This document shows, one piece after another, positions 1,781 to 55,687 of a DNA stretch of 64,000 nt; the stretch's first letter is position 1; every line of letters starts with the position of its first letter. Origin of the DNA: an uncultured SAR86 cluster bacterium (GTDB taxonomy: Bacteria; Pseudomonadota; Gammaproteobacteria; Magnimaribacterales; AG-339-G14); the NCBI GenBank assembly GCA_902514645.1, contig CABXRO010000003.1, forward strand, positions 1,068 to 65,067, in the 5' to 3' direction. The position numbers were made by a program, and so were the translations under genes. The notes under the pieces are model-generated. The model was not told the DNA's origin. It ran no database searches and saw only the letters and a list, made by a program, of their open reading frames with translations.

Positions 1781-2373
1781 TAACTCACTCCGTCTGAACC
1801 GATAACCAGAAGATTATCTTTTTCAAAAAAATGTGGAGGCACAACTAAATTCGTAGGGGCTGGAACGTTTGCATATACTCTGCCAACTAGATCAAATTTT
1901 GAACCATGACAAGGACAAAAAAATCCACCTTGCCAATTTGAATCAAAGTCTTCGGGTTTGGCTTCTGGATAATATTTCGGGGCACAACCTAAATGTGTAC
2001 AAACGCCGGTAAGAACTGCAATACCTTTTTTTCGTGATCTGATTTCGTTTTTTGCATATTCTGGTTGAGAAGGATCTTTCATTTCAGGATCTGCCAACCT
2101 TTCTAAATTATTTGTTATAGCGTTGGTATTTTCTTCAGGAATATTTACAACAAAAACTGGTCTTCCTCTCCATTCAACTGTCATCATTTCTCCAGGGAGC
2201 AATTTTGAAACATCAACTTTTACTGGTGCTCCTGCCGCTTCAGCTTTTGCACTTGGTTTAAAAGCGCTTATAAAAGGTACTGCGGTGAAAAAAGCACCTA
2301 TAAGTCCCAAAAAAGAAGTCGTATAGGTAAGGAACTTCCTTCTACCAGGATTAGGAGGACTTTTGGGTTGCAT
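1780..2373 (-). CDS. petA: Ubiquinol-cytochrome c reductase Rieske Fe-S subunit
   Basis: Tat motif RRKFL; CTHLGC and CPCHGS Rieske boxes. Confidence 0.98.
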
Positions 2374-2376
2374 GTT

Positions 2377-2766
2377 TTATCTTTTGCTGAATTGAGGCGC
2401 TTTTCTTGCTTTTCTTAATCCAACTTTTTTTCTTTCCACTTTTCTTGAATCTCTAGTTAAGTAGCCTGCTGACTTTAAAGCTCCTCTAAACTCACTGTCT
2501 TTTTTTTCAAGGGCTCTAGATATTCCATGTCTAATAGCACCAGCTTGTCCAAAAGAACCTCCGCCGGAAACCTTTATTTTGAGATCGTATTTCTGATCGC
2601 AACTCAAAAGCTTCAAAGGCTGTTTTACGAGTATTTTAGCTACTTCCCTTCCAAAGTATTCTTCTAAAGGTAGATCATTTATTAATATATTGCCTGTACC
2701 CTCATAAAGATAGACTCTCGCCGTTGCACTTTTTCTTCTTCCTGTTGCGTAAATTGCTTCTGACAT
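2377..2766 (-). CDS. rpsI: 30S ribosomal protein S9
   Basis: [24 protein letters not shown]-terminal QFSKR. Confidence 0.99.
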
Positions 2767-2776
2767 ATTTATTTTG

Positions 2777-3205
2777 CTATAAAGCTAATTCCTTCGGTTG
2801 TTGTCCAGAATGAGGGTGCTCTGCTCCAACATATACCTTTAATTTTTTTATAATTTTATTTGCCAGTTTATTTTTAGGAAGCATGCCTTTAACTGCTTTT
2901 TCAATAATTTTTTCAGGTGAATCTGCTTGCATTTTTTCAAATGTTGTTGTTTTTAGACCGCCGGGGAAACCAGTGTGATGATGGTATTTTTTTTGAGTGA
3001 ATTTATTACCTGTAACGCACACTTTTTCTGCATTAACAACTACAACGAAGTCACCTAAATCTGCGTTAGGAGAGTAATGGGTCTTATTTTTTCCGGATAA
3101 TATGTTTGCAATTTTTACAGCCAATCTTCCTAAAATCTCATCTTTGGCGTCGATAAGATGCCATTTTTTTTCTAAATCATCACTTTTGTAACTTTTAGTT
3201 TTCAT
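2777..3205 (-). CDS. rplM: 50S ribosomal protein L13
   Basis: [41 protein letters not shown]. Confidence 0.99.
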
Positions 3206-4040: not shown

Positions 4041-5348
4041 TTACTTTCTTCTAAATTTTAATGCATTTGCATGATTATCTAAACCTTCGAGTTCTGCTAA
4101 GAATATAGAGTTTTCAAGTAATTCGTTATATTTACTTTTGTTCTTCAAAGTATTAATTGCAGTTACAGAAGTTCTAACTAGGAAATCTTCAACGCTGACG
4201 GGTGAGCTAAATCTTGCAGAAGAATTTGTTGGAATTACGTGGCTAGGGCCCGCTGCATAATCTCCTAATACAGCAGAATTATTTTCTCCTATAAAGATTG
4301 CTCCAGCAGAAAATTCTTTTAATAATGAGTCATCGAAACTTTTTAAGATTATCTGTAAGTGTTCTGGTGAAATAAGATTATTAATAAATATTGCCTCTTT
4401 TAAGTTTCTAACTTGAACAAACATTGAATTATTTTCTAAAGCAGTTTTTATAGTTTTATTTCGAGGAGCAGAATTTACTAGTTCATTCAATTCTTTAAAC
4501 ATGTCGTCTAATCCAAATTTTCCAATTTGAATATAAACGCACTTAGAATCTTCGCCATGCTCAGCCTGAGCAATTAGATCAGCAGCTAACATTTTAGATC
4601 CTTTTTTCTTGTCAGAAATTATCAGCACTTCTGATGGACCTGCAAAAGAATCTATACCAACGTCTCCAAATACTTGCCTTTTTGCTTCAGCGACATAAAC
4701 ATTTCCTGGCCCAAAGATCTTATCCATTTTAGTAATTGTCTTTGTTCCATATGCCATTGCCGCAATTGCATGAGCTCCACCGAAATTGTATGCATGTTTT
4801 ATTCCAGCAACATGAGCAGTTCCTAGCATCAACTTTCTTGCATCATCCGATGAGCTAGGAAAAAAAAGATTAATCTCCTTACAGCCTGCAACCGAAGCAA
4901 TAAGAGCTGTCATGAGGATCGAAGATGGGTAAGTAGCTTTACCTCCAGGTGCATAAATACCAATTTTATTTATGGGTTTGTGAATTTGACCTAAAATGTT
5001 AAAAACATCATCTTTAGTTTTTAAGTCATTTATTTTTATTAATTTATGAAAGTTTATAATTCTATTTTTTATATAATTTAAGTTTTTCTTAGTTTCATTG
5101 TCGAACTTTTCATAAGCTTTTCTAAAGTCTGTTCGATTATAGGACGCATCAGAGATTGACTTGAATTTTGTATTGTCTATTTTATTAGAAATCTTAATTA
5201 GAGCAGTGTCTCCATTTTTTTTTACATCAGAGATTATTTTTTGAACAGCCTCTCTAACATTTGAATTTCTGTTAATAGAATTGGTTTTTGACAAAAGTTT
5301 CTTTGCTGTTGCAAATGATACTTTTTTAATTTTTAAATTTTTCATCAA
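4041..5348 (-). CDS. hisD: Histidinol dehydrogenase
   Basis: GIYAPGGKA, KIFGPGNVYV, AGPSE, AQAEH, PEHL, GDYAAGPSHVIPT. Confidence 0.96.
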   Translation of the reverse strand: MMKNLKIKKVSFATAKKLLSKTNSINRNSNVREAVQKIISDVKKNGDTALIKISNKIDNTKFKSISDASYNRTDFRKAYEKFDNETKKNLNYIKNRIINFHKLIKINDLKTKDDVFNILGQIHKPINKIGIYAPGGKATYPSSILMTALIASVAGCKEINLFFPSSSDDARKLMLGTAHVAGIKHAYNFGGAHAIAAMAYGTKTITKMDKIFGPGNVYVAEAKRQVFGDVGIDSFAGPSEVLIISDKKKGSKMLAADLIAQAEHGEDSKCVYIQIGKFGLDDMFKELNELVNSAPRNKTIKTALENNSMFVQVRNLKEAIFINNLISPEHLQIILKSFDDSLLKEFSAGAIFIGENNSAVLGDYAAGPSHVIPTNSSARFSSPVSVEDFLVRTSVTAINTLKNKSKYNELLENSIFLAELEGLDNHANALKFRRK

Positions 5349-14425: not shown

Positions 14426-15851
14426 TTGGCAGCCTGTCATTGGATTGGAAGTTCATGTTCAACTTGCTACCAAAACTAAACTTTTTTCCTCTTCGCCAAT
14501 AGCTTTTGGTGCTGAACCAAATACTCAAGCTAGTGAAATTGACTTAGGACTTCCAGGTGTATTGCCTGTATTAAATAAAGAAGCAATTTCTCATGCTTTA
14601 AAGTTTGGTTGTGCAATAAATGCAGAGATATCTGAAAAAGTAATTTTTGCAAGAAAGAATTACTTTTATCCCGACCTGCCTAAGGGTTACCAAATAAGTC
14701 AACTAGATGATCCTATTGTCGGCAAAGGAAGTGTTGAAATAAAACTTGGTGAAAAATCAAAAATTATTGGTGTTACTAGGGCTCATCTTGAAGAAGATGC
14801 GGGGAAATCAATCCATGACTTGTACAGCAATAACTCTGCAATAGATTTAAATAGAGCTGGAACTTGCTTATTAGAAATAGTCTCTGAGCCTGATCTTAGT
14901 TCTGCTGAGGAAGCAGTTGAGTATTTAAAAAAAATACACAGTATTGTTACCTTTTTGGGAATCTCAGATGGAGATATGTCACAAGGATCAATGAGATGCG
15001 ACGCCAACGTATCTGTTAAAAGGCCCGATGACCAAGAACTAGGTACAAGAACTGAATTAAAAAATATTAATTCTTTCAAATTTGTTGAAAAAGCAGTCAT
15101 TTTTGAAATAGATAGACAAATAAAAGAGCTTGAAAAGGGAGAAAAAATTATTCAAGAAACAAGATTGTATGATTCTAAAAAAAATCTTACGCGATCCATG
15201 CGTTCAAAAGAGGAAGCAAATGACTACCGCTATTTTCCAGAACCAGATTTAATTCCTATAAAAATCTCAAAGGATCAAATTAACGATGTGAGAAAAAATT
15301 TACCTGAATTGCCAGAAATTATGAAAGAAAGATTCATGAACTCTTACAAACTATCAGATGACAATGCTGAACTTGTAACAATAAATAAAGAAACTGCATC
15401 CTTTTTTGAAGAAGTATTGTCTTATAAAGTTTCTCCTAAAAATGCCGTAAATTGGATCACTGGAGACTTATTTGCCCTCCTCAATAAAAATGACGCAAAC
15501 ATTTCTGAATCTAAAGTAAATCCAAAGCATATTGCAGAGATAATTCAAAATATTGAAGACCAAAAAATTTCTGGCCCTTCAGCAAAAAAACTTCTTGAGA
15601 TTGTATGGAGTGAAGGAGGAGAAATACAAGAGCTCATTCAGAAAGAAAGTTTAGAACAAATTTCTAATGATGATGAAATAGAAAAAATCCTTGATGAGGT
15701 GATTTCTGAAAATCAAAAACAATTTGAGCAGCTAAAATCAGGCAAAGATAGACTGCAAGGCTTTTTCGTTGGTCAAGTTATGAAAAAAACTTCGGGAAGT
15801 GCAAGCCCACAAGTTGTAAATAAACTTTTAAAAGATAAATTATCTACGTAA
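14412..15851 (+). CDS. gatB: Asp/Glu-tRNA amidotransferase subunit B
   Basis: VIGLEVHVQL, RKNYFYPDLPKGYQISQ, HLEEDAGK, DYRYFPEPDL. True start is probably ATG 14412 (MSLNNW). Confidence 0.98.
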   Translation: MSLNNWQPVIGLEVHVQLATKTKLFSSSPIAFGAEPNTQASEIDLGLPGVLPVLNKEAISHALKFGCAINAEISEKVIFARKNYFYPDLPKGYQISQLDDPIVGKGSVEIKLGEKSKIIGVTRAHLEEDAGKSIHDLYSNNSAIDLNRAGTCLLEIVSEPDLSSAEEAVEYLKKIHSIVTFLGISDGDMSQGSMRCDANVSVKRPDDQELGTRTELKNINSFKFVEKAVIFEIDRQIKELEKGEKIIQETRLYDSKKNLTRSMRSKEEANDYRYFPEPDLIPIKISKDQINDVRKNLPELPEIMKERFMNSYKLSDDNAELVTINKETASFFEEVLSYKVSPKNAVNWITGDLFALLNKNDANISESKVNPKHIAEIIQNIEDQKISGPSAKKLLEIVWSEGGEIQELIQKESLEQISNDDEIEKILDEVISENQKQFEQLKSGKDRLQGFFVGQVMKKTSGSASPQVVNKLLKDKLST

Positions 15852-16296
15852 TAAACATAGATAAGGACTCGGCTACATAAGCAGGTTTTTCTTGACCTTC
15901 TATCTCCATTACAACTTCGTATTTTAAAAGATATCTTCCGTCACCTTTATCATCAACAGATAAAAGCGTTGATTTAGTCCTTACTTTTGAACCCACATTA
16001 ACAGGAGTTAAAAATCGAACTTTATCAAGTCCATAATTAAAAACCATGGTCATACCCTCAGGAGCAACTTGAGGAGCTGGCAACCCAGCCATCAACGAAA
16101 GGGATAAAAATCCATGAGCTATTGTTGAGCCAAAAAGTGGTGTAGCTTTTTCTGAATCGATATGAATGAATTGATGGTCATTCGTTGCATCAGCAAATTG
16201 ATTTATTCTATCTTGATCAACTTTTAACCAATCTGAAGCTCCCATACTTTTACCAATGTAATCTTTTAAAGTATCTGCAGGTACTAATCCAGCCAT
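15844..16296 (-). CDS. MaoC-family (R)-specific enoyl-CoA hydratase
   Basis: Hydratase motif FADATNDHQFIH, plus TIAHGFLSLS and NYGLDKVRF..PV. Confidence 0.9.
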   Translation of the reverse strand: MAGLVPADTLKDYIGKSMGASDWLKVDQDRINQFADATNDHQFIHIDSEKATPLFGSTIAHGFLSLSLMAGLPAPQVAPEGMTMVFNYGLDKVRFLTPVNVGSKVRTKSTLLSVDDKGDGRYLLKYEVVMEIEGQEKPAYVAESLSMFIT

Positions 16297-16314: not shown

Positions 16315-17931
16315 TTATTTCATTAAATGATTTTTGTAGTCTTCTCGCAAACCTGTCTTGAGAAGTTTCCCTGTTGCTCCATGAGGAAGTTCATCTAGAA
16401 AGATAACGTCATCAGGAAGCCACCATTTGGCTACTTTATCAGAAAGGTAATCCAATACTGAATCTTTATCACATTCATCTAAGCCATTTTTAACAATAAA
16501 CAATAAAGGCCTTTCATCCCATTTGGCATGAGCAACTCCAACAACACATGCCTCTGCTACTCCCGGATGTCCAACTGCCGTATTTTCTAGATCAATAGAA
16601 CTAATCCACTCTCCTCCGGATTTAATAACATCTTTGCTTCTATCAACTATTCTCATATAGCCATGAGTATCTATCGTTGCAACGTCTCCTGTATCAAACC
16701 ATCCATCTTCCAGAGCAGTCTCATTAGACTTAAAGTAACGTTCAATAATTGCAGGTCCTTTAACCATAAGTCTCCCAAACGTTTTTCCATCATTAGGTAG
16801 AACCTTGCCTTCATCATTTATTATTTTCATTGAACAACCGTAAACTGCTCTACCTTGACTTGTTTGAATTTCATATCTTTCTTCAAGATCCATACCGTCC
16901 ATCTCTGGAGTGTAGGAATTGAGTGTCCCAAGTGGACTCATTTCTGTCATACCCCAACCATGAAGTAAAAAACAATCATGTTTCTCTTGAAAGGCTTTTA
17001 TCATGGCTTTTGGAGCAGCAGAACCACCAACCAACACACTTTTTACAGACTCGAGTTTGATATTGTTCTTCTCAGTGTAATTCAGCAAGTCAAGCCATAC
17101 CGTAGGAACTCCCATAAGCTGATTTACTTTTTCAGAAGTAATTAAATTACAAATTGATTCACCATCAGTGAAGGGACCTGGAAAAACCATTTTGGCACCA
17201 TACATAAATGATGCATATGGAATTCCCCACGCATTAACATGAAACATAGGCACTACAGGAAGCAACACGGTTTCAGAAGTTAAATTCATTGCATTCCCAG
17301 CAGTAGCATACCAAGCATGCAAAACTGTAGATCTATGAGAATAAAGAACTCCCTTAGGATTTCCAGTTGTGCCAGATGTATAACATAATGATGAAGCTGT
17401 ATTCTCATCAAATTCAGGCCAACATATTTCTTCAGATTCATCAGCAATAAGATCCTCATAACAAATGAGATTTTTAATTGATGAAGATGGCATGTGCTCT
17501 TTATCAGTAAGTACCACAATTCCTTTAACTGTTTTTAGGTCAGAAATGACATTTTCTATGATTGGTAAGAAAGGCACATCGACGAAGATATATTTATCTT
17601 CGGCATGATTAACTATGTATTTAATGTCATCTGGAAACAATCTTGGATTAAGGGTGTGAAGAACAGCTCCCAATCCAGAAATGCCAAAATAAAGTTCTAA
17701 ATGGCGATAACTGTTTACGGCCATCGTGGCAATTATATCCCCCTCTTTGATATTTAAATTAAGCAAAGCATTGGCCAATTTCTTGGATCTTTTTGCAGAG
17801 TCTTTAATGGTATATCTATGTATGCCTCCTTCTACAGTGTTGCTTACTATTTCTGTATTGGCGTTATTTTTTATAGCATGTTCTAAAACTCCTGAAATTA
17901 GAAGTTGTTCATTCATCATATTCCCTAACAT
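16315..17931 (-). CDS. Acyl-CoA ligase (AlkK/DmdB-like medium-chain or 3-methylmercaptopropionate-CoA ligase family)
   Basis: [53 protein letters not shown]. Confidence 0.9.
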
Positions 17932-17935
17932 AATC

Positions 17936-18991
17936 TCACCTTTTTTTTGTTAAACCCTTTACGAATAAAGGAGAATATCTTCGCTCAAGAAATCCATCAA
18001 CCTCTTTTTTTGATTCTAAATGAAAAAGTTTTATATCGTTTAAAGAAGACATTAAAAATGGTTTCCATTCCAATAAAATTTCATCAAGAGGATTTTCAAA
18101 AATAAATCGAATTGATTTTTTACTAATATTTAAAGCGCGCTGTAATTCCTTTTCGTTTAACGCCTTAAAAGGATCAGAGAAGATTGGTTTTAATTCTTTT
18201 GGTAAATATGGAACTTTCTGCTTTGGATTAAATAAATAATTTAATAAAAATTTGTCTGTTTCTTTTAAACCAGTTCCATTGAGAAAGTGTCCAACTATTG
18301 ATTTGTTTAAAGATCTTCCTTTTAAGGGACCTAGAAACAATCTACTTGGGCAATAATCATTTGCATAAAAATTATCCCAAATGGCTATAGGATTTTTAAA
18401 AAAATCTTGAATAGACTTTAGAGATAAATTGTCAATCCTTTCACTGATAACATTATCACCTGTCCAAAAAATAACTACGCGCTTATTTAAATTTTCTTTT
18501 AGCCCTCCTAGATATCCTTCATCAAATATCCCCTTCGATAAAGATAAATTATAAATTGACGGACAAAACCACATATTTTTTTGTTTTGGAAAGTGCATAG
18601 AAACTTCATTTAAAACTTCTGCATGTTTTTTTCCCAAATCTTTGTCAGCTGCTTCCTGACCAAAATTAGTTATATCTATGTCATCGAAGAAAATTGCTAT
18701 TTCATCAAAGCCTGCTTTCTCAAGAGCATGAGAAAATTTTCTTTTCAAAAGTTTTAAGTTCTTTTCAATGTCTCCAAAAAATTCTGAAGAAGGAGAAACG
18801 CAATAAACTTGTTTGATTTTTTTTGGAAGAATTCTTCTCTTAAGATTTTTATCAAGTTTCTTCCATCGATGACGCAAATAAATATCTTCTTTTGGTCCAT
18901 AAAAGTAATGAGAAATGGGTGTTTTTAAATCTTTAAAGGCATCAATTGCTAGCCTTCGAGAGTAATAACCTTCTATATAGCCTTTAAACAT
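17936..18991 (-). CDS. GH84 beta-N-acetylglucosaminidase (O-GlcNAcase-like), no signal peptide
   Basis: GYIEGYY, YGPKED, FFDDI (catalytic Asp-Asp), FCPSIY, FWTG and IWDNFYANDY..RLFLGPLKGR. Confidence 0.88.
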   Translation of the reverse strand: MFKGYIEGYYSRRLAIDAFKDLKTPISHYFYGPKEDIYLRHRWKKLDKNLKRRILPKKIKQVYCVSPSSEFFGDIEKNLKLLKRKFSHALEKAGFDEIAIFFDDIDITNFGQEAADKDLGKKHAEVLNEVSMHFPKQKNMWFCPSIYNLSLSKGIFDEGYLGGLKENLNKRVVIFWTGDNVISERIDNLSLKSIQDFFKNPIAIWDNFYANDYCPSRLFLGPLKGRSLNKSIVGHFLNGTGLKETDKFLLNYLFNPKQKVPYLPKELKPIFSDPFKALNEKELQRALNISKKSIRFIFENPLDEILLEWKPFLMSSLNDIKLFHLESKKEVDGFLERRYSPLFVKGLTKKR

Positions 18992-18994
18992 GAT

Positions 18995-19732
18995 TTAGAT
19001 TCTACAGATCCTACATTCTGGGTTTTTATGAATATCAACTCTTTTAAAAATTCCTTTCAACGAATCAAAAATCATAAAATAAGATTCAAAATTTTTTTCT
19101 ATAGTCGCTTTTATCACCTCAATTGCCATTAAAGAGCCTATGACTCCAACTAACGGAGAAGCAATCGCAGACTCTCTGCATGACAAATCTTCATTCTCGA
19201 GATCTTCAAATAAACACTCATAACAGGAATTCATAACATCTCTTAAATCAAAGCAGCCCAATTGTCCTTTCCAAGCAATAGAGGATCCAGAAATAAGAAT
19301 TTTGTTATGTTTTACGCAATATCTATTTACAATTTTTCTTGTTTCAAAATTGTCAGAGCAATCAAGAATTATTTCTGAATCCTTCAGAAGATGTTTGATG
19401 TTTGCTGAATCAACTTTTTCCTCTAATCCTGTTAGCTCAACAAAAGGATTTAATTGAGATAATTTTTTTACTGATGTAGTGGCTTTATTTTTTGATAAGT
19501 CATTTTCATCAAAAAGAATTTGCCTTTGTAAGTTTGAAGCTTCTACAAAGTCAAAGTCTATTATTTTGATTTTACCAAATCCAGATAAAGCTAAATAAAG
19601 AGAGGCAGAGCATCCCAAGCCGCCCATGCCTATAAATGCCAACGACATATCATTAATTCTTTTCTGCCCTTCAATGTCTATTTCAGGCAACATAATATGT
19701 CTGCTATATCTTAATAATTCTTCTTTTAACAT
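18995..19732 (-). CDS. moeB: MoeB/ThiF-family adenylyltransferase
   Basis: RYSRHIML, GMGGLG, SNLQRQ, DCSDNF, CYECL and CRIC Zn motifs; follows prmC. Confidence 0.88.
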   Translation of the reverse strand: MLKEELLRYSRHIMLPEIDIEGQKRINDMSLAFIGMGGLGCSASLYLALSGFGKIKIIDFDFVEASNLQRQILFDENDLSKNKATTSVKKLSQLNPFVELTGLEEKVDSANIKHLLKDSEIILDCSDNFETRKIVNRYCVKHNKILISGSSIAWKGQLGCFDLRDVMNSCYECLFEDLENEDLSCRESAIASPLVGVIGSLMAIEVIKATIEKNFESYFMIFDSLKGIFKRVDIHKNPECRICRI

Positions 19733-20535
19733 TGATAAATCGAAACTCTTTTATCCCCATTTAAATCATTTAAATTTGAAAAATTAAGATACCCATTTTC
19801 CACGGCAAATTTATTTAATTCTTCGTATTGATCAGGAGCATGTTCTAAATAAACTTTACCATTTTCATTTAAAAAATTTTTTCCTTTAGATAAAATTAAT
19901 TTTAAATCAGATAGGCCTTTATCTTTTGAAAATAAGGCCTTTTCTGGTTCATGCCATATCCCTTCTTCTTTTCCAGTAGTTGTCTCTTTATCTACATAAG
20001 GAGGATTAGAAATTAAATAATCTACTTGAGGAAAAAGCCATTCATTATTCCAGTCATGATTTAAAAAAATTATGTTTTCACAGCAAAACTTCGCTGCATT
20101 TTGTTTTGCTACCAAGATACTTTTAATAGAAATATCTGTTGCAAAGATAAAACAATCTTTATTTTCTTGAGCGATGGATATAGAAATCGCTCCAGACCCT
20201 GTTCCAAGCTCAAGAAGAGTTTTGCCTTGTAGATTTTCATTGAGAATTGCATTTACCAATGTTTCAGTTTCTGGACGCGGAACAAGGACATCTGGAGTGA
20301 CAATAAAACTATTTTTCCAAAACCCTTTCTTTCCGATTAAATAGGCTAGAGGTTTACCTTTTAATCTCTCTTCGACCATTAGGTCAATGGAGCTAAGATC
20401 TTTTTTATTAATTTCTTTTTTAATATCTGAATAAATTTTTGCTTTATCAATTTTGAGAACGTGTTGAATAATAATTTCAGCATCAGGACTATCAATTTTG
20501 TTTTTAATTTCTATTAACTTATCCTTAACAAGCAT
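19726..20535 (-). CDS. prmC: Release factor glutamine methyltransferase
   Basis: PLAYLIG, VLVPRPETE, ELGTGSGAI, SNPPY. Confidence 0.95.
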   Translation of the reverse strand: MLVKDKLIEIKNKIDSPDAEIIIQHVLKIDKAKIYSDIKKEINKKDLSSIDLMVEERLKGKPLAYLIGKKGFWKNSFIVTPDVLVPRPETETLVNAILNENLQGKTLLELGTGSGAISISIAQENKDCFIFATDISIKSILVAKQNAAKFCCENIIFLNHDWNNEWLFPQVDYLISNPPYVDKETTTGKEEGIWHEPEKALFSKDKGLSDLKLILSKGKNFLNENGKVYLEHAPDQYEELNKFAVENGYLNFSNLNDLNGDKRVSIYQC

Positions 20536-21626
20536 CAGGTAGGTTCATTTTCTAAGTTAATAAGTTTTTTTGCTTCATTCTCTTCTGTAAGAGCCGATAG
20601 CATAATTTCCATGTCGCCATCTAAGAATTCTTCTAAATTATGTACAGAAAATTCAATTCTGTGATCAGTAACTCTGCTTTGAGGAAAATTATAAGTTCTA
20701 ATTTTTTCTGACCTATCACCACTTCCAACCATGATCTTTCTTTGAGAGTCTAATTCTTTAGCTTGTTCTTCTAGGGCTGCCTCATTCAATTTACTTTGAA
20801 GTAAAGACATAGCTTTTTCTTTGTTCTTATGTTGCGATCTTCCGTCCTGACACTCAACAACGATGCCAGATGGAATATGTGTCAGTCTGACTGCGGAATC
20901 AGTTTTATTAACGTGCTGTCCTCCTGCGCCAGATGCTCGAAAAGTATCAACTCTAATTTCTGACTTATCAATGTTTATGTTTTCTTGTTCATCTGCCTCT
21001 GGCAGGACGGCTACCGAACATGCTGAGGTATGAATTCTTCCCTGTGATTCGGTTTCTGGAACTCTTTGAACCCTGTGTATTCCTGATTCATATTTGAGAA
21101 AACCATAAGCACCTCTTCCAGTAATTTTAGATACTATTTCTTTGAAACCTCCTTTTTCACTTTCTCTAGAGCTAATGATTTCTATTTGCCATTTGCGTCT
21201 TTCTGAGAGCCTGGAAAACATCCTAAACAAATCGCCAGTAAATAGTCCAGCTTCATCGCCTCCAGTACCAGCGCGAATTTCTATAAATGCATTTTTTTCG
21301 TCATTTGGATCTTTTGGTAACAGCATTTTTTTTAAATTTTCTTCTAACGAATCTTTTTTATTTTTGAGACTTTCTAGTTCTTCTTGAGCTAAGGCTCTAA
21401 TTTCACTATCCGAATCGTTCAGAAGTTGATTTGATTCATCAATATTTTCCTCAATAGATTTAAATTCGCTAAAGCTATCAACAATAGGTTTTAGGTTTGA
21501 ATATTCTTTTGAAATAGACGTAAACTTGGTTTGATTTTCTATTATTTCTGGCTTTGATAACTCAGATTCCATTTGAGAAAATTTAATTTGAATTTCTTCT
21601 AGTTTCTTTTTTACCGACTCCAACAT
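20535..21626 (-). CDS. prfA: Peptide chain release factor 1
   Basis: EIRAGTGGDEA, PxT motif VPETESQG, GAGGQHVN. True start is ATG 21626 (MLESV); the longer ORF overlaps lolB. Confidence 0.98.
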   Translation of the reverse strand: MLESVKKKLEEIQIKFSQMESELSKPEIIENQTKFTSISKEYSNLKPIVDSFSEFKSIEENIDESNQLLNDSDSEIRALAQEELESLKNKKDSLEENLKKMLLPKDPNDEKNAFIEIRAGTGGDEAGLFTGDLFRMFSRLSERRKWQIEIISSRESEKGGFKEIVSKITGRGAYGFLKYESGIHRVQRVPETESQGRIHTSACSVAVLPEADEQENINIDKSEIRVDTFRASGAGGQHVNKTDSAVRLTHIPSGIVVECQDGRSQHKNKEKAMSLLQSKLNEAALEEQAKELDSQRKIMVGSGDRSEKIRTYNFPQSRVTDHRIEFSVHNLEEFLDGDMEIMLSALTEENEAKKLINLENEPT

Positions 21627-21658
21627 AAAAACTATTATAGTATCTAGTCTGCTTTCAT

Positions 21659-22099
21659 ATGAAAAAATCGTTTTTAGCTTTGTATCTTTTTTTAGTTTTT
21701 TTTCTTTTTTCTTGTGCCGCAATCGAAATCAAAGAGGACGTATTTTCAAAAAAAGGTAAGTTTTCTCTTGCTTCTAATTCTGAATATTTCGCAGGAACCA
21801 TAAATGTGAGTAGCGTTGAGAAGAGAATTCAATTTAATTTAGATAGTTTGAGTAAAGAATTTAAAGTTTCGTTTAAAGATGAAGAAATCAAAACTAACTT
21901 TAAATACGAAAACATCATAAAAGAATCTGACTTTAAATTATTTCTTAAATGGTTCTTTTTCAAATGTACAAATATCGAATGTCAAAATTTTACCTTGCAA
22001 AATCTTAAACTAAAAAAGCATTTATCAAATAAATCAGGTCTAATTATTCAAGGAAATTTTCAAAATTTTAGATTGTCACTGAAACTCAATGATATTTAG
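21659..22099 (+). CDS. Lipoprotein, probable highly diverged LolB
   Basis: Lipobox LFSC; KGKFSL resembles the LolB first strand; immediately upstream of ispE, the canonical lolB position. Confidence 0.55.
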   Translation: MKKSFLALYLFLVFFLFSCAAIEIKEDVFSKKGKFSLASNSEYFAGTINVSSVEKRIQFNLDSLSKEFKVSFKDEEIKTNFKYENIIKESDFKLFLKWFFFKCTNIECQNFTLQNLKLKKHLSNKSGLIIQGNFQNFRLSLKLNDI

Positions 22100-49211: not shown

Positions 49212-51503
49212 TTATTTTTGATAAAGATATTTTTGAAAATCAGTAAAAACTTGCTTGATTTCACCTGCAGGACCCAATTGTTTTTGAGCTTCATTCAAGC
49301 TTCCGTATTTTGAGTTAATGATGGTTGGAAGGTTTGATACATCCAGCTCATCAATACCTTCTTTTATATAATTATTTAAAACAAATCGAATGAACTCTAT
49401 TTGTTTCTTATCAATAAACTTATAAATATTATCTTCAGCTGATTCAACTCTCTCTTTTCTGGTTAAAGCTGGGTTGCTAAAGGCAATGTATTGAAGTACG
49501 TCAAATAAGTCACTGTTCTCGGCGTTAATGAGCTCTCTAAGTTTATTTAAATCTTCTTTACCACAGCCATGCTTTTCTAACTTACTTATCAACTCACTTC
49601 TAGTGATTGGGTTAGACCATAATTGCCTCAATTCATCTTCTCCACCAAGAATCTCTGGAAGTTTTAATGTATCAAATAACTTCTTAATGAACTCTTCTGC
49701 GCTGACTGGTTTGCCGTCTAAATAAAACATAGTTGAAGACATAGTTTGAATCTCTCTAAACTTGCCGTCAGATAATTTAATTTTAATTTTCTTGGGCTTA
49801 TTAATTTTGTCTTCTTTATCTTCATCATTATCTTTAATTTCTCCTGTTACGCGTTCACCTCCTTCAACTGGCTCAGCTGGCAACCCATCCCATTCTGGGT
49901 CATTGAACATCTGATAAGCATTTACAAAATCTATGATGGTAAAGTAATGCTTGCCTTCAAAAATACGAGTTCCTCGTCCAATAATTTGTTTGAACTCAAT
50001 CATATTGTTCACAGGACGCATCAAAACAATGTTGCGCACATTCCTAGCATCAACTCCGGTGGTTAATTTTTCGCTGGTTGTAAGAATGGTTGGAATGGAT
50101 TTTTCACTATCTTGAAACTGCTTTAGGTAGGTATCACCGATAGCTCCATCGTTTGCCGTTACTCTGACGCAATAATCTACCGCAGCATTGTCGGACTGTT
50201 GGTTAATTAAATCTCTGACTAAAGCTGCATGAGGCTGGTTAGCACAAAAGACAATAGTCTTTTCCACTGGATTTATGGTCTTGAGCATTTCTTGAACACG
50301 CTTTAACTCTCTTTCTTTAATTACAATTTTTTTATTAAAGTCATCTTCTTTATAAAGCTTCCCGGATTCAGGCTCGCCGTCGAGAACTTCATCGTCATCC
50401 GTATACACATACTCATCAAGAGAAGTTTGAATACGTTTAACTTTAAATGGTGTTAGGAATCCATCTTGAATACCTTCTCTTAAGCTATAGGTAAAGACAG
50501 GTTCGCCGAAGTAATTATATGTATCTACATTGTTTTTTCGTTTGGGAGTTGCAGTTAAACCCAAATGAACAGCAGAATTAAAGTAATCTAAAATGCTACG
50601 CCAATTACTTTCGTCATTAGCGCCTCCTCTATGACACTCATCAATAATAATGAAATCAAAGAATTCAGGTTTGTATTCACCAAAATAAGGTTCTTCCTCT
50701 GGCCCACTCATAAAGGTTTGAAAGATAGTAAAGAAGACACTTGCATTTGTAGGCACCCCTCCACTTTTTTTTATCTCATCAGGAGTAATTCTTACAACAG
50801 CATCTTCACCAAAAGCTCCAAAATCCAGAAAGGCTTGGTTGGCTAAAATGTTTCTGTCAGCAAGGAATAATATTCTTGGTTGTCGCTTGCCATCCTTTTG
50901 CAGATTCCATCTGCTTTTAAAAAGCTTCCAAGCAATTTGAAAAGATATAAAGGTTTTTCCGGTTCCTGTAGCTAGGTTTAAAAGGATACGGTCTTTGCCT
51001 GCAGCAATGGCTTCCATTGCTTTATTGACAGCTAATTCTTGATAGTACCTTGGTTGCTTAGCTCCGTTCTGGTCCTCGAAAGGAACTGCATCAAAGTTAT
51101 CCTGCCACTCATTGGTATCACCAAAAGTTTTCTTCCATAGCTCTTCAGGTGATGGGAAACTTTGTACATCTCCTTCACTGCCGTTCATGTCAATTTGATA
51201 AATCTCTTTGCCGTTTGCTGAGTAAGCAAATTTAAGATTAAGTTTTTGAGCATAGATTTTTGCTTGAGCAACACCTTCTCCAACCTCTAGCTCATCTGAT
51301 TTAGCTTCAACAATGGCTAGCTTTCTATTTTTATAACTTAAGACATAGTCTGCTTTAAGCTGACCTGCCCTGATACCACCGGCTTTAATTTCACCAGCAT
51401 TGATGTTGTATTCTCTTTGAACCAATACATCGCCGCCAGAAATCCAGCCAGCGGCTTTTAGCTGCGGGTCTATAAGTTCTGCTCTGGTATCAGCTTCGTT
51501 CAT
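49212..51503 (-). CDS. hsdR: Type I restriction endonuclease subunit R (EcoAI/EcoEI-like)
   Basis: ADYVL...IVEAK nuclease motif, ATGTGKT, DECHR, LTATP, TGVD, QIIGRGTR; EcoEI-like C-terminus. Confidence 0.95.
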   Translation of the reverse strand: MNEADTRAELIDPQLKAAGWISGGDVLVQREYNINAGEIKAGGIRAGQLKADYVLSYKNRKLAIVEAKSDELEVGEGVAQAKIYAQKLNLKFAYSANGKEIYQIDMNGSEGDVQSFPSPEELWKKTFGDTNEWQDNFDAVPFEDQNGAKQPRYYQELAVNKAMEAIAAGKDRILLNLATGTGKTFISFQIAWKLFKSRWNLQKDGKRQPRILFLADRNILANQAFLDFGAFGEDAVVRITPDEIKKSGGVPTNASVFFTIFQTFMSGPEEEPYFGEYKPEFFDFIIIDECHRGGANDESNWRSILDYFNSAVHLGLTATPKRKNNVDTYNYFGEPVFTYSLREGIQDGFLTPFKVKRIQTSLDEYVYTDDDEVLDGEPESGKLYKEDDFNKKIVIKERELKRVQEMLKTINPVEKTIVFCANQPHAALVRDLINQQSDNAAVDYCVRVTANDGAIGDTYLKQFQDSEKSIPTILTTSEKLTTGVDARNVRNIVLMRPVNNMIEFKQIIGRGTRIFEGKHYFTIIDFVNAYQMFNDPEWDGLPAEPVEGGERVTGEIKDNDEDKEDKINKPKKIKIKLSDGKFREIQTMSSTMFYLDGKPVSAEEFIKKLFDTLKLPEILGGEDELRQLWSNPITRSELISKLEKHGCGKEDLNKLRELINAENSDLFDVLQYIAFSNPALTRKERVESAEDNIYKFIDKKQIEFIRFVLNNYIKEGIDELDVSNLPTIINSKYGSLNEAQKQLGPAGEIKQVFTDFQKYLYQK

Positions 51504-51517
51504 GCTGCTTCAATTGT

Positions 51518-52729
51518 CTAAATTTCATGTTTAAGGATTGATGATTTTAATGTTTCATATTTTTTTAAAATCTTATCAAGACCTATATTTAATTTATCAA
51601 GTTCAACTGTAGCAATATCAAGTTTGTATACAATATTTTCTTGTTCTTTGATTGAAGGTAGCAAAATTTCAATATTGTTAATTAACGTCATATTGAGACC
51701 TCTTCTGTCATTTCCGCTGTCTCCAGTTATACGTCTTATCTTTTCGTACATTCCATCTAAAACATAATAAAGATATTTTGTATTTAAGTTCATTTCTGAT
51801 TTTGGAAAAATTGATACAAGTGACTGATTACATGTTGCTTTTGTCTTGAGAATTGCAACAGTACCTCTAGTTTTTCCCTGACCATTTAAGGCAATTAAAA
51901 CGCTGTTCTCTGGGAGAAATTTAGCATTTGAATTATTCAAACCTTCCTCAGTAATTCTTCCATCACAATCAAAAATTTCTTTTTGGTGTATATCACCAGA
52001 GACAAGCCACTTGATTTCACCATTATCAAAATATTCAGGCACTTTGCGACTAGGTGTTCCGCCAGTCATCAAATCACAAATATCTCCAATTTTTAATTCT
52101 TTCCAGGTGTTAGAAGCTTTATTGAAGATACTCTCCTCTTTATTCGTATTTAAAATTGAGTTTTTAAATTTATTAATTTCTTCTTTTTTCAGAACCGTTA
52201 TTTTTACTGCCTTATCAATTTCTGCAAATGCTGCATCAAGCTTAGTAACTATGCGTTGTTGTTCTTTGAGTGGGGGGAGTGGTATTTCTAAGTTCTCAAC
52301 AAAATCTTTTGGTAATCGCTTGTGCCCGACAGCACCACTCATTTGCTCCTTGCCATTAGCACGAAAGCTTGGTTGGCTTAGGCGGTAGTAGATGTACTGT
52401 GAAAGCACCTCTTCACCACATCGCAAAACTATATATTCACTTGAACCGAATCCTACACCGTTCTTTAAATTGGAAACGATTCCAAGCTTGCCGTTTTCAA
52501 AGCATGGAGTGATTTTTGCAAGGAGAACGTCATTATCTTCAAAGTAAGTATAGGAACTGTAAGCTTTCGCCAAGGTTTTTGTTTGATTTGCAGCTGGGTA
52601 CATTTCGTCTATGCCCAGGTCTTCCATTGGCATAAATGAAACGGTGTCAGTATCTGCAAGTTTTTTCTTTACTTGTGCTTTTTTGGGCTGAATTTCACAG
52701 ACATCGCCAAGCTTCACTGTCTTCCACAT
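51518..52729 (-). CDS. hsdS: Type I R-M specificity subunit
   Basis: Two TRDs, each starting W..(V/L)K(L/I)GD(V/I)C and followed by IPLPPLKEQQRIV or ILLPSIKEQENIV conserved regions. Confidence 0.95.
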   Translation of the reverse strand: MWKTVKLGDVCEIQPKKAQVKKKLADTDTVSFMPMEDLGIDEMYPAANQTKTLAKAYSSYTYFEDNDVLLAKITPCFENGKLGIVSNLKNGVGFGSSEYIVLRCGEEVLSQYIYYRLSQPSFRANGKEQMSGAVGHKRLPKDFVENLEIPLPPLKEQQRIVTKLDAAFAEIDKAVKITVLKKEEINKFKNSILNTNKEESIFNKASNTWKELKIGDICDLMTGGTPSRKVPEYFDNGEIKWLVSGDIHQKEIFDCDGRITEEGLNNSNAKFLPENSVLIALNGQGKTRGTVAILKTKATCNQSLVSIFPKSEMNLNTKYLYYVLDGMYEKIRRITGDSGNDRRGLNMTLINNIEILLPSIKEQENIVYKLDIATVELDKLNIGLDKILKKYETLKSSILKHEI

Positions 52730-54198
52730 TACAGCAACTCCTTAATTGCTTTTAAAGCTTCTGAAGCTTTTATATCCAGTTGCTCTATTTCTGCAATAAT
52801 TTCTTGTGGGGTTCTGTCATCAACCTCTTCAACTTTATTAGGATTACTGACAGATAAATCATATGTCTCTTTATTGATATCGGAAACATTAACCATCCAA
52901 CTGTTATCACTTTCCTTGTGTGTCTTAGCCAACTCAAGAAATTCAGCCAAGTCTTCTTGATTCAGTGGATTTGTTTTTCCTAGGTTTCTGCCAAGGTTCA
53001 ATTGGTAGTACCAAATCTTTTTAGTCGGTGTTCCTTTATCAAAGAAAAGTACAACCGTATGAGCTTGAGTGCTTGTAAAAGTTTTAGTAGGTAGTTCTAG
53101 GATGGAGTTAAGATTACATTCTTCTAATAACTGTTTTCTTAAAGCAATGCTGGCGTTGTCTGGATTACTTAAAAAAGTGTTCTTTATAACAACTCCAGCA
53201 CGCCCACCAGCTTTTAAAATCTTTATAAAATGTTGTAAGAATAAAATAGCTGTCTCACCAGATTTTATTGGGAAGTTTTGTTGAACCTCAGCTCTTTCAT
53301 CGCCACCAAAAGGAGGATTGGCAAGAATTACATCAAACCTATCTTTCTCTTGAATATCTGCAATATTTTCTGTGAGCGTATTAGTATGCAATATATTGGG
53401 AGACTCTATGCCGTGAAGAATCATGTTCATATTTCCTATAGCGAAAGGAATTGCTATTTTTTCTTTACCATAAAGAGTTGATTCTTGAAGTTGTTTGTAC
53501 TCAGTTGCAGTAAGTTCTTTAGAATTAAGAATGTGTGAATAAGCCTCGCATAAAAAACCAGCGCTACCAACAGCGCCGTCATAGACCTTCTCTCCAATAA
53601 CAGGATTAACAACTTGAGTTATAGCTTGGATTAAAGGTCTTGGAGTATAGTACTGGCCACCTGAGCGCCCAGCATTTCCCATTTTATTAATCTTGTCTTC
53701 ATAAAGACTACTTAGCTCGAATCTATCTTCATTAGTTAAAAATTGAATCTCATCTATCTTATTAATTACATCTCTTAAAATGTAACCACTCTGAACTCTG
53801 TTGATAAGTTCATTAAATATTTGACCTATTTTGTATTGGAGTGAATTAGCTTCGAAGGAGACTGACTTGAAATTTTTAAGATAGGGGAAGAGTTCATTAT
53901 TTACAAAGTCACTTAGGTCATCTCCGGTCTTAGCGGAGTTATAATCCAGCGAACCATCGGCTTTTTTTGGAGCTGCCCAAGCTTCCCAGCTAAATTCATT
54001 ACTTAAGATAGGCGAATAACTCTTATTACTTAGTTCAGCTGCTGCTTGCTTTTCTTTTTCATAATCATCTAGATATTTTAAAAAAAGAATCCAAGAGGTT
54101 TGCTCAATATAGTCTATGTCACTACTACAACCAGCATCTTTCCATAAAATTTGATCAATACTTTTAAAGATTGCATCGTAGTTCATTTTTTCAACCAC
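52729..54198 (-). CDS. hsdM: Type I R-M N6-adenine methyltransferase subunit
   Basis: SWILFLKYL, GQYYTPR, YDGAVGSAGFL, ILANPPFG. Start is GTG 54198 or ATG 54186. Confidence 0.96.
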   Translation of the reverse strand: MVEKMNYDAIFKSIDQILWKDAGCSSDIDYIEQTSWILFLKYLDDYEKEKQAAAELSNKSYSPILSNEFSWEAWAAPKKADGSLDYNSAKTGDDLSDFVNNELFPYLKNFKSVSFEANSLQYKIGQIFNELINRVQSGYILRDVINKIDEIQFLTNEDRFELSSLYEDKINKMGNAGRSGGQYYTPRPLIQAITQVVNPVIGEKVYDGAVGSAGFLCEAYSHILNSKELTATEYKQLQESTLYGKEKIAIPFAIGNMNMILHGIESPNILHTNTLTENIADIQEKDRFDVILANPPFGGDERAEVQQNFPIKSGETAILFLQHFIKILKAGGRAGVVIKNTFLSNPDNASIALRKQLLEECNLNSILELPTKTFTSTQAHTVVLFFDKGTPTKKIWYYQLNLGRNLGKTNPLNQEDLAEFLELAKTHKESDNSWMVNVSDINKETYDLSVSNPNKVEEVDDRTPQEIIAEIEQLDIKASEALKAIKELL

Positions 54199-54202
54199 AG
54201 CT

Positions 54203-55687
54203 TCATGAATTAACTTTGCCTTTAATGAAGAAAGACAGAACTATTAAGACTGCTGCCAAGATCAAATAGTAATAAATCAATTCAGAGAATATTGGGGTCA
54301 TACTACTCAAGCCGGATTCGGTTGCTTCTCCGCCAAACAATCCCGCAAGTACTCCTCCAAGAGAGGAAGCTAAAAACCACAAACCCATCATTTGGCCAAG
54401 ATATTTTTTAGGTGAATATCTGGAAAATGCGGACAAACCAACTGGCGATAAAGCGAGTTCACCAAAGGTATGAAGAAGGTAAGTTAAGAGTAACCATTGA
54501 ACTCCTACTGGTGCCTCCACCATCGCATACTGCACAGCATAGAGCATCACAATAAAACCAAGTCCCATAAAAATTAACCCAATGGCAAATTTAATAGGTG
54601 TATTGGGATTTAAATTTCTTTTGCCTAAAAAGACCCAAAGATAAGCAAAGAACGGTGCAAACATCACCACAAAAAGCGGATTTAAAAATTGCGTCCAACT
54701 GACAGGTGCTTGAAAAAGGCCAAAAGTAAGGTTTACATAATCTCTGGTAAAAATTGATAATGAGCCTGCAGACTGATCAAAACCAGACCAAAAAGCAGCC
54801 GCTCCCACAAATAACAGTAAAAGCATTAATACGTTTTTCTTTTCAAAGCTAGTAAGACCTGCAAAGAAAAACAAGTACCCAAAATAAATAAATGAGATTA
54901 AAACCAAAAAGTCTCGAAAACGCTCGGCAAAAAATACCGGGTCAATACTCCAAAACCCAAGGACTCCTGAGATGACTACTGCAGCAAAAAACAAAACCGT
55001 AATAATGGTCCAGAGTCTTAAAGTGCTTCTGCGCCCTTCTGCCATCTCATTCGGATTTAAGCCGGCAGTTCCAAGCTGACTTCTAAAATAAACAAATTGA
55101 ATGACGCCAAAGAGCATACCAATGCCTGCAGCGCCAAAACCCCAATGCCAGCCGATACGCTCGCCCAGATAACCGCAAACAGCAAAACCGAGCATGCTAC
55201 CGATATTGATCGACATGTAAAAAATGGTGAAACCGGAATCTCTTTTCTCGTCTTGATCGGTATAAAGCTGACCCACAATGGAGGAGATATTGGGTTTTAG
55301 AAGACCGGTACCAATAGCAACAAAAGCTAGTCCAAGAATAAAAGTCTCTTCCAATGGAATCGCCAAAGTGAAGTGTCCCAACATGATGATGAGCGCCCCA
55401 TATAGCACGGCCTTTTGATAGCCCAGTAAGTTATCTGCGAGCCAACCACCGGGTAATGCTAAGAAATAAACCATGCCAGCATAGATGCCATATATGGCAT
55501 TGGCTTCAACGTTTGACCAACCAAGTCCTGGATTACCAACCACGCCAATGGTCATGTAGAGCACAAGGAGTCCGCGCATGCCATAATAGGACATTCGCTC
55601 CCAGAGCTCGGTAAAGAATAAAGTTCTTAAGCCAATGGGATGACCGAAGAAATTTCTTTGTGATAGATTAGCTTCTTGTTCAGACAT
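54203..55687 (-). CDS. POT/PTR-family proton-dependent oligopeptide transporter
   Basis: FFGHPIGL, ELWERMSYYGMR (ExxER), GGWLAD, GTGLLKPNIS, FYMSINIGS, GELALSPVG. Confidence 0.96.
   Translation of the reverse strand: MSEQEANLSQRNFFGHPIGLRTLFFTELWERMSYYGMRGLLVLYMTIGVVGNPGLGWSNVEANAIYGIYAGMVYFLALPGGWLADNLLGYQKAVLYGALIIMLGHFTLAIPLEETFILGLAFVAIGTGLLKPNISSIVGQLYTDQDEKRDSGFTIFYMSINIGSMLGFAVCGYLGERIGWHWGFGAAGIGMLFGVIQFVYFRSQLGTAGLNPNEMAEGRRSTLRLWTIITVLFFAAVVISGVLGFWSIDPVFFAERFRDFLVLISFIYFGYLFFFAGLTSFEKKNVLMLLLLFVGAAAFWSGFDQSAGSLSIFTRDYVNLTFGLFQAPVSWTQFLNPLFVVMFAPFFAYLWVFLGKRNLNPNTPIKFAIGLIFMGLGFIVMLYAVQYAMVEAPVGVQWLLLTYLLHTFGELALSPVGLSAFSRYSPKKYLGQMMGLWFLASSLGGVLAGLFGGEATESGLSSMTPIFSELIYYYLILAAVLIVLSFFIKGKVNS

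Follow-up and report, generated by a model that had tools for sequence, protein, structure and literature searches.

A compact GH84 glucosaminidase of SAR86 bacteria as a putative replacement for NagZ in anhydromuropeptide recycling

What does a close relative of the eukaryotic O-GlcNAcase (OGA) do in a marine bacterium with a genome of about 1 Mb? The question is raised by a 64,000-nucleotide stretch of DNA (the window) from an uncultured SAR86 cluster bacterium (contig CABXRO010000003.1 of assembly GCA_902514645.1, positions 1,068 to 65,067), in which a 351-residue glycoside hydrolase of family 84 (GH84) is encoded directly behind prfA, prmC and a moeB-like gene. A first-pass annotation had headed its proposals with reversible modification of proteins by N-acetylglucosamine (GlcNAc), with cell-wall recycling as its third suggestion. 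Our comparisons favour the latter: GH84 and the recycling glucosaminidase NagZ exclude each other across the order, the recycling partners AmpG, AmpD and AnmK are kept, and relatives of the enzyme in SAR116 bacteria lie within recycling clusters. We estimate a probability of about 0.7 that this GH84 is a non-orthologous replacement of NagZ in the recycling of anhydromuropeptides.

The gene begins with ATG and is the sole open reading frame (ORF) listed at its position. Its product matched the Pfam NAGidase model (PF07555) over residues 4-246, with an E value of 3.6e-40 and 138.6 bits (gathering cut-off 25 bits), and a scan of NCBIfam gave a partial match only, to the long GlcNAcase model NF041654. 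These were the only domain-model matches, and the protein falls outside both GH3 and NF003740, the NagZ model. Judged by these models, it is a member of GH84 with predicted beta-N-acetylglucosaminidase activity, and relative to NagZ it is an analogue, not a homologue. All of the GH84 active-site motifs listed in the first-pass annotation are present in the translation, namely IEGYY (residues 6-10), YGPKED (31-36), FFDDID (101-106), FCPSIY (142-147), WTG (176-178), WDNFYANDY (205-213) and RLFLGPLKGR (217-226). The closest relative of solved structure by sequence was human OGA (5uhk, E 4.2e-26), followed by the OGA of Oceanicola granulosus (OgOGA; 2xsa, 6.9e-22), that of Thermobaculum terrenum (TtOGA; 5diy, 1.8e-20), BtGH84 (2.5e-17) and C. 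perfringens NagJ (2.8e-13). In the alignment with human OGA, whose stretch running from iwdn to kgr reads as given in the annotation, D103 and D104 fall on the aspartates of LFDDID and are invariant in 25 of 25 aligned family members. K34, Y147, W205, N207, D212 and N238 are likewise invariant and are identical to human OGA at the aligned positions; we take these residues (Lys, Tyr, Trp, Asn, Asp and Asn) to form the GlcNAc-binding -1 site. C214 is also invariant in the compact family, and human OGA has D there.

A structural model generated with AlphaFold (AF2) from a 25-sequence alignment (predicted local distance difference test 88.4, predicted template-modelling score 0.86) consists of a (beta/alpha)8 barrel followed by a helical bundle. 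Foldseek returned human OGA and OgOGA as the top matches, both of them over the two domains, with template-modelling (TM) scores of about 0.72 (0.71 for OgOGA) and a probability of 1.00 to human OGA, OgOGA and BtGH84. The start codon lies three residues ahead of the first barrel strand, and the frame offers neither a longer ORF nor an upstream extension. Moreover, a hydrophobicity scan with a 19-residue window detected no hydrophobic leader or membrane segment in any of the 25 family members. Because no N-terminal extension is possible and no hydrophobic segment is present, the enzyme is predicted to be cytoplasmic. The anatomy given in the first-pass annotation was thus borne out: a compact, leaderless, eukaryote-like GH84 following prfA-prmC-moeB, with 3 nt between it and the ThiF/MoeB-family ORF, which ends at 18995.

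The distribution of GH84 was compared with that of NagZ in 266 species genomes of the order (about 0.6-1.8 Mb, four families), 57 of them of high quality, with true NagZ defined as a score over the cut-off of NF003740 (207 bits). The window's own assembly (0.94 Mb) is 70% complete, and its close relatives are gammaproteobacterial metagenome-assembled genomes (MAGs) from seawater. A hand comparison of the two lists gave 136 genomes with GH84 only, 95 with NagZ only, 35 with neither and none with both, against about 49 co-occurrences expected if the two genes were independent. Of the high-quality genomes, 36 had GH84 only, 20 NagZ only and one (G172) neither, the NagZ and neither counts being taken from a rounded completeness column; again none had both. 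The two genes also show no overlap within genera: g8 has 20 genomes with NagZ and four with GH84 (G080, G094, G098 and G099, among the 12 genomes without NagZ), and g13 has 17 and four (G175, G177, G180 and G184), respectively. Within the window's family, GH84 was found in 37 of 50 genomes (all of g1, 6 of 8 in g2, 14 of 16 in g3 and 0 of 9 in g4), and a short GH3 protein of 337-346 residues was confined to g4, where 8 of the 9 genomes have it. With 431.5 bits on NF003740, this short GH3 is a true NagZ. The other GH3 proteins of the family are all 807-831 residues long and occur in genomes of both types, in most genomes (e.g. G036:C2:426851-427720). On a tree of the flanking genes (prfA, prmC, ligase and MaoC of 17 genomes; a quick IQ-TREE search) the GH84/NagZ label changes four times, and at least three of these changes are forced by well-supported branches. 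That GH84 and NagZ replace each other genome by genome points to a NagZ-like role for GH84. A separate case is G201 of genus g18, which has no GH84 and encodes a 601-residue GH3 protein (G201:C12:139-1059) that stays under the NagZ cut-off with 158.6 bits and might fill the glucosaminidase step by a third route.

The remaining enzymes of the pathway are largely kept. AnmK was found in 43 of the 50 family genomes, spread over all four genera, AmpG over its cut-off in all four high-quality family genomes searched (the best of each genus), and an AmpD-type amidase, adjoining AmpG, in 5 of 5 family genomes. GH84-type genomes of the other three families gave AmpG in 5 of 5 (4 over cut-off) and AnmK in 5 of 5, and AnmK and AmpD were found in the window's own genome. 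GH20 was detected in none of five genomes. With AmpG, AmpD and AnmK kept while GH20 is absent and GH3 is otherwise represented by the 807-831-residue proteins of both genome types, GH84 is the sole candidate for the glucosaminidase step.

In the proposed route, lytic transglycosylases would release GlcNAc-beta-1,4-anhydro-N-acetylmuramic acid (anhMurNAc)-peptides, which AmpG would import. GH84 would then remove the terminal GlcNAc through the D103/D104 pair and the acetamido group of the substrate itself, AmpD would remove the peptide and AnmK would phosphorylate the anhMurNAc. The presumed substrate, compartment and pathway position are those of NagZ; in family and fold NagZ, a GH3 enzyme, is unrelated to GH84. 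The chemistry differs likewise, GH3 enzymes using an enzyme nucleophile and GH84 enzymes substrate-assisted catalysis. A precedent for a step without GH3 is NagX of Stenotrophomonas maltophilia, a GH20 hexosaminidase reported to cleave GlcNAc-anhMurNAc-peptide (PMC13436218) and described there as periplasmic; unlike the enzyme proposed here, NagX coexists with NagZ instead of replacing it.

Compact relatives of the enzyme were also found outside the order, in SAR116 alphaproteobacteria, other gammaproteobacteria, Fibrobacterota/Chitinivibrionales, spirochaetes and one Desulfobulbaceae MAG. In the outside set, the genomes of 25 relatives picked from the 80 loci listed, NagZ over the NF003740 cut-off was present in 0 of 25, and 19 of these genomes gave no GH3 match to the model at all. 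The complete genome of Ca. Levibacter (SAR116) has, in order, an AmpD-like amidase, an NlpC/P60 peptidase, a MurQ-like SIS protein, AnmK, a PIG-L deacetylase and GH84, followed by a dehydrogenase, an H+-pyrophosphatase, an L,D-transpeptidase and AmpG. The core of this cluster (AnmK, PIG-L deacetylase, MurQ-like SIS protein, L,D-transpeptidase and AmpG) recurs in Ca. Marisalimonas and in two SAR116 single-cell genomes (GH84 identity in these clusters 45-65%), and GH84 was clustered with recycling genes in 4 of 4 SAR116 and Marisalimonas loci. The compact GH84 of the outside clusters is 30% identical to that of the window (tblastn). We read these clusters as neighbourhood evidence for muropeptide recycling, which would be independent of the distribution argument. 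In the Ca. Levibacter locus (L152) the PIG-L deacetylase lies between AnmK and GH84, with the short MurQ-like SIS gene upstream (4203-4892 (-), 2328-3074 (-)); the two proteins could supply the NagA-like and etherase steps that are missing from clusters of the SAR116 type.

Several observations weigh against a recycling role. To our knowledge, no GH84 enzyme has been shown to cleave GlcNAc-anhMurNAc. The related genomes compared above are not independent of one another, and the only firm number of switches between GH84 and NagZ is at least three. Neither in the window nor in the order does a recycling gene lie next to GH84, its neighbours being prfA, prmC, moeB and the ligase, and in the window's own genome, 70% complete, AmpG gave no match. 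Of the 25 outside genomes only 15 have AnmK and only 17 AmpG, and five (G271, G272, G273, G276 and G277) have GH84 with neither, so that the enzyme there must serve another purpose or pathway. GT41, the family of the O-GlcNAc transferases (OGT), was present in 9 of the 25; together with the gaps in AnmK and AmpG, these carriers imply that the role of the GH84 family may differ from lineage to lineage. A two-domain GH3 protein that scores below the NagZ cut-off (533-598 residues, 132-182 bits) was found in three outside genomes, and the cut-off of NF003740 may miss NagZ proteins from outside the proteobacteria. Furthermore, the characterised OgOGA and TtOGA were assayed on O-GlcNAc substrates (PMC2973230 and PMC4683255).

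The later steps of recycling also count on this side. MurQ over its cut-off and NagA were each found in 0 of 5 genomes (G000, G036, G007, G022 and G026), and none of four APH-family candidates examined was recognisable as AmgK, with no direct search made for MurU or MupP. How MurNAc-6-phosphate and GlcNAc re-enter metabolism in the family is not accounted for by the genes found. MurQ and NagA were not found, and AmgK was not recognisable, in the NagZ-type genome G026 either. As for the APH-family candidates themselves, the two of about 320 residues adjoin an acyl-CoA dehydrogenase and match no NCBIfam model, and the two of 349-351 residues adjoin a pteridine reductase and show only a weak match to APH(3').

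The outside genomes without AnmK or AmpG would fit a catabolic enzyme, that is, a cytoplasmic exo-GlcNAcase that frees GlcNAc from imported chitooligosaccharides or glycopeptides for use as carbon and nitrogen. GH84 enzymes accept many aglycones, and the window itself encodes a POT-family peptide symporter (54203-55687). However, GH18 chitinases, GH20 and NagA, the last needed for classical GlcNAc catabolism, were each absent from five genomes searched, and the absence of GH18 and NagA argues against the use of chitin and against classical GlcNAc catabolism. In none of the 18 loci examined is GH84 flanked by sugar-uptake genes, and a catabolic role leaves unexplained the exclusion with NagZ, an enzyme known for recycling. 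We regard this role as unlikely. A housekeeping GlcNAcase, whose main flux is muropeptide recycling and which also trims other cytoplasmic GlcNAc conjugates, would share all of the evidence given for recycling, and would further accommodate the aglycone promiscuity of GH84 and the carriers without AnmK or AmpG. On the other side, the evidence identifies no second substrate, and streamlined genomes argue for one essential role, which makes such a broader enzyme quite unlikely.

The locus was also compared across the order. In the window the genes from prfA to MaoC (prfA-prmC-moeB-GH84-ligase-MaoC) are closely spaced, overlapping or lying apart by 1-18 nt; fusion of GH84 to a neighbour is excluded there by the stop codons and the gaps of 3-4 nt. 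Thirteen GH84-type genomes, representing all four families, were examined, and in 12 of them GH84 occupies the slot prfA-prmC-(moeB)-GH84-ligase, moeB being sometimes missing. The same neighbours without GH84 were found in 5 of 5 NagZ-type genomes (g4, g7, g9, g12 and g13), with a moeB-ligase spacing of only 77 bp in g4, and the genomic context of NagZ differs among g4, g8 and g13. In genus g2 the gene sits away from prfA, between a cytochrome b561 gene and an esterase gene, about 300 kb from moeB (L034 6338-7381 of G007; L040 of G005). A GH84 tree, for which a motif filter had removed 4 of 19 loci (G113, G119, G254 and G244), joins family f3 to f1 (g1 and g3) and g8 to g13, as does the flanking-gene tree, with the exception of the relocated g2 copy, which groups with the copies of family f2 and not with those of g1 and g3. 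This suggests that the GH84 of g2 was replaced by transfer within the order. We infer that the ancestor of the order already had GH84 at the prfA-prmC site and that genomes with NagZ have lost it. The location beside translation genes is old, and nothing ties it to function: of the translation-operon argument in the first-pass annotation, the placement behind prfA-prmC-moeB stands, but no functional link is evident, and g2 keeps the gene elsewhere. Nor is the occurrence of the gene at this locus sporadic, as the annotation had considered it might be, since the locus is conserved in all four families. The features of the locus are collected in the table.

Features of the GH84 gene and its neighbours in the window, with the evidence for each
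Feature	Coordinates	Strand	Evidence
Compact GH84 beta-N-acetylglucosaminidase gene (351 aa), proposed NagZ analogue	17936..18991	-	ORF, PF07555, PDB relatives, AF2, Foldseek
(beta/alpha)8 catalytic barrel, residues ~1-250	18242..18991	-	Model secondary structure; Pfam residues 4-246
Catalytic Asp-Asp pair D103-D104 (FFDDID)	18680..18685	-	Human OGA alignment; 25/25 invariant
Sugar-binding loop WDNFYANDYC (W205, N207, D212, Y213; C214)	18350..18379	-	Human OGA and family alignments
C-terminal helical bundle, residues ~265-349, OGA stalk-domain counterpart	17945..18199	-	Model helices; OGA chains aligned over 400+ columns
ThiF/MoeB-family adenylyltransferase, upstream neighbour, 3 nt gap	18995..19732	-	PF00899 E 2.3e-67; NF004281 246 bits, below 266-bit cut-off
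prmC (release-factor glutamine methyltransferase)	19726..20535	-	TIGR03534 235.8 bits, cut-off 199.1
prfA (release factor 1), called from TTG	20535..21722	-	PCRF and RF-1 domains; 395 aa
Acyl-CoA ligase, downstream neighbour, 4 nt gap; nearest model 3-(methylthio)propionyl-CoA ligase	16315..17931	-	NF005426 785.9 bits, cut-off 822
MaoC-like dehydratase, last gene of co-oriented run	15844..16296	-	PF01575 E 8.8e-23

The closeness to human OGA in sequence and fold, with barrel and helical bundle both kept, would also fit a genuine protein O-GlcNAcase, which would clear O-GlcNAc from cytoplasmic proteins in partnership with a transferase other than GT41. The position after prfA-prmC, conserved in four families, may be read in the same way, and in vitro both OgOGA and TtOGA are reported to strip peptides and proteins of O-GlcNAc (PMC2973230, PMC4683255). 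The search for a writer gave the opposite picture. GT41 (PF13844) was found neither in the window's own genome nor in any of the 50 family genomes, the 266 genomes of the order or the 57 of high quality, and the controls, Caulobacter and Synechococcus, do match. With no GT41 in the order while the controls match, the canonical O-GlcNAc cycle is removed from consideration, and the headline of the first-pass annotation, which had named the lack of a GT41 partner among the results that would count against it, falls with it; as far as GT41 can tell, the enzyme is not part of an OGT/OGA system. An eraser would, moreover, have no reason to exclude NagZ, g2 keeps its gene away from prfA, and in genomes of about 1.1 Mb no writer was identified. 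We consider a protein O-GlcNAcase most improbable.

The catalytic and stalk domains of human OGA (5uhk, 5tke and 5m7r) are the best match in sequence and fold, with the active-site residues aligned and conserved, but human OGA, at 916 residues, also contains a disordered insert and a pseudo-acetyltransferase domain, and it works opposite OGT. OgOGA (2xsa, 2xsb and 7khs), which serves as a stand-in for human OGA, shares the compact two-domain layout of barrel and helical bundle and the Asp-Asp pair, and is longer (447 residues against 351 here). BtGH84 and NagJ have the GH84 barrel and catalytic pair, but are more distant relatives: they are secreted modular enzymes, exported chains of 590-740 residues with an N-terminal domain ahead of the barrel, so that the match starts at about residue 130-150 of the chain. 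TtOGA is an intracellular bacterial GH84 with a helical bundle (PMC4683255); unlike the SAR86 bacteria, T. terrenum encodes a GT41 OGT, and an O-GlcNAc system has been proposed for it.

The GH84 gene of the window is real and intact, and it is probably expressed. The gene is covered by contigs from seawater RNA libraries with 95-97% identity to the window (one corresponds to 17934-18445 in X2), and others bridge both of its junctions (17504-18106 in X4, 18878-19041 in X2 and 18867-19019 in X5). As these contigs are assembled, they report presence and bridging only, DNA carry-over being possible and uncovered stretches (the gene interior in X5 and X12) uninformative; we take them as a weak sign of expression. 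In G039, a genome of the window's genus, GH84 was matched in two adjacent pieces in different frames (G039:C2:514727-515450; open frames of 91 and 329 residues), which points to a frameshift, a pseudogene or faulty assembly. A non-functional relic in decay would agree with this split gene. It is scarcely credible in view of the open frames, which are intact in 36 of the 37 family carriers, the lack of any variation at catalytic and sugar-binding positions in 25 of 25 aligned members, the retention of the gene in 136 genomes of about 1 Mb, and the RNA-library contigs that cover it.

For two decades, bacterial homologues of human O-GlcNAcase have been structural surrogates for the human enzyme. 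Bacterial OGA and OGT orthologues have been used in this way despite little insight into their physiological roles, as stated by Ostrowski et al. (2015, PMC4683255). If the recycling role proposed here is right, it is a new physiological role for the known GH84 family, and we found no paper that proposes GH84 in cell-wall recycling in the open-licence full text of PMC and bioRxiv. The compact cytoplasmic clade would thereby gain a concrete role, as the glucosaminidase of anhydromuropeptide recycling, and GH84 would be the third glycoside-hydrolase family at this step, after GH3 NagZ and GH20 NagX. For very abundant ocean bacteria, in whose genomes GH84 is currently labelled 'protein O-GlcNAcase' or 'hyaluronoglucosaminidase', the proposal would close what looks like a missing step in the annotated pathway, and there would be reason for caution in reading O-GlcNAc signalling from a GH84 gene alone. 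It would also hint at the origin of eukaryotic O-GlcNAcase. In its widest and more doubtful form, which we put forward tentatively, the proposal is that the compact cytoplasmic GH84 enzymes, which among bacterial proteins most resemble eukaryotic O-GlcNAcase, form a clade of unrecognised muropeptide-recycling glucosaminidases, replacing NagZ in much of this marine order and in SAR116. This would explain OGAs without OGT, such as OgOGA, and the eukaryotic eraser would descend from a cell-wall recycling enzyme later recruited to proteins.

Some minor features of the window were also recorded. The called prfA is longer than in most relatives (395 against 358-375 residues), and its true start is probably about 30 codons downstream of the called TTG; a start there would also remove the overlap with a 146-residue ORF (21659-22099). 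The ligase and the MaoC dehydratase behind GH84 may belong to dimethylsulphoniopropionate demethylation or to fatty-acid metabolism. A complete type I restriction-modification system, with an EcoAI-family HsdR (810 bits), HsdS and HsdM, lies at 49212-54198 (-), in an otherwise housekeeping stretch of this small genome.

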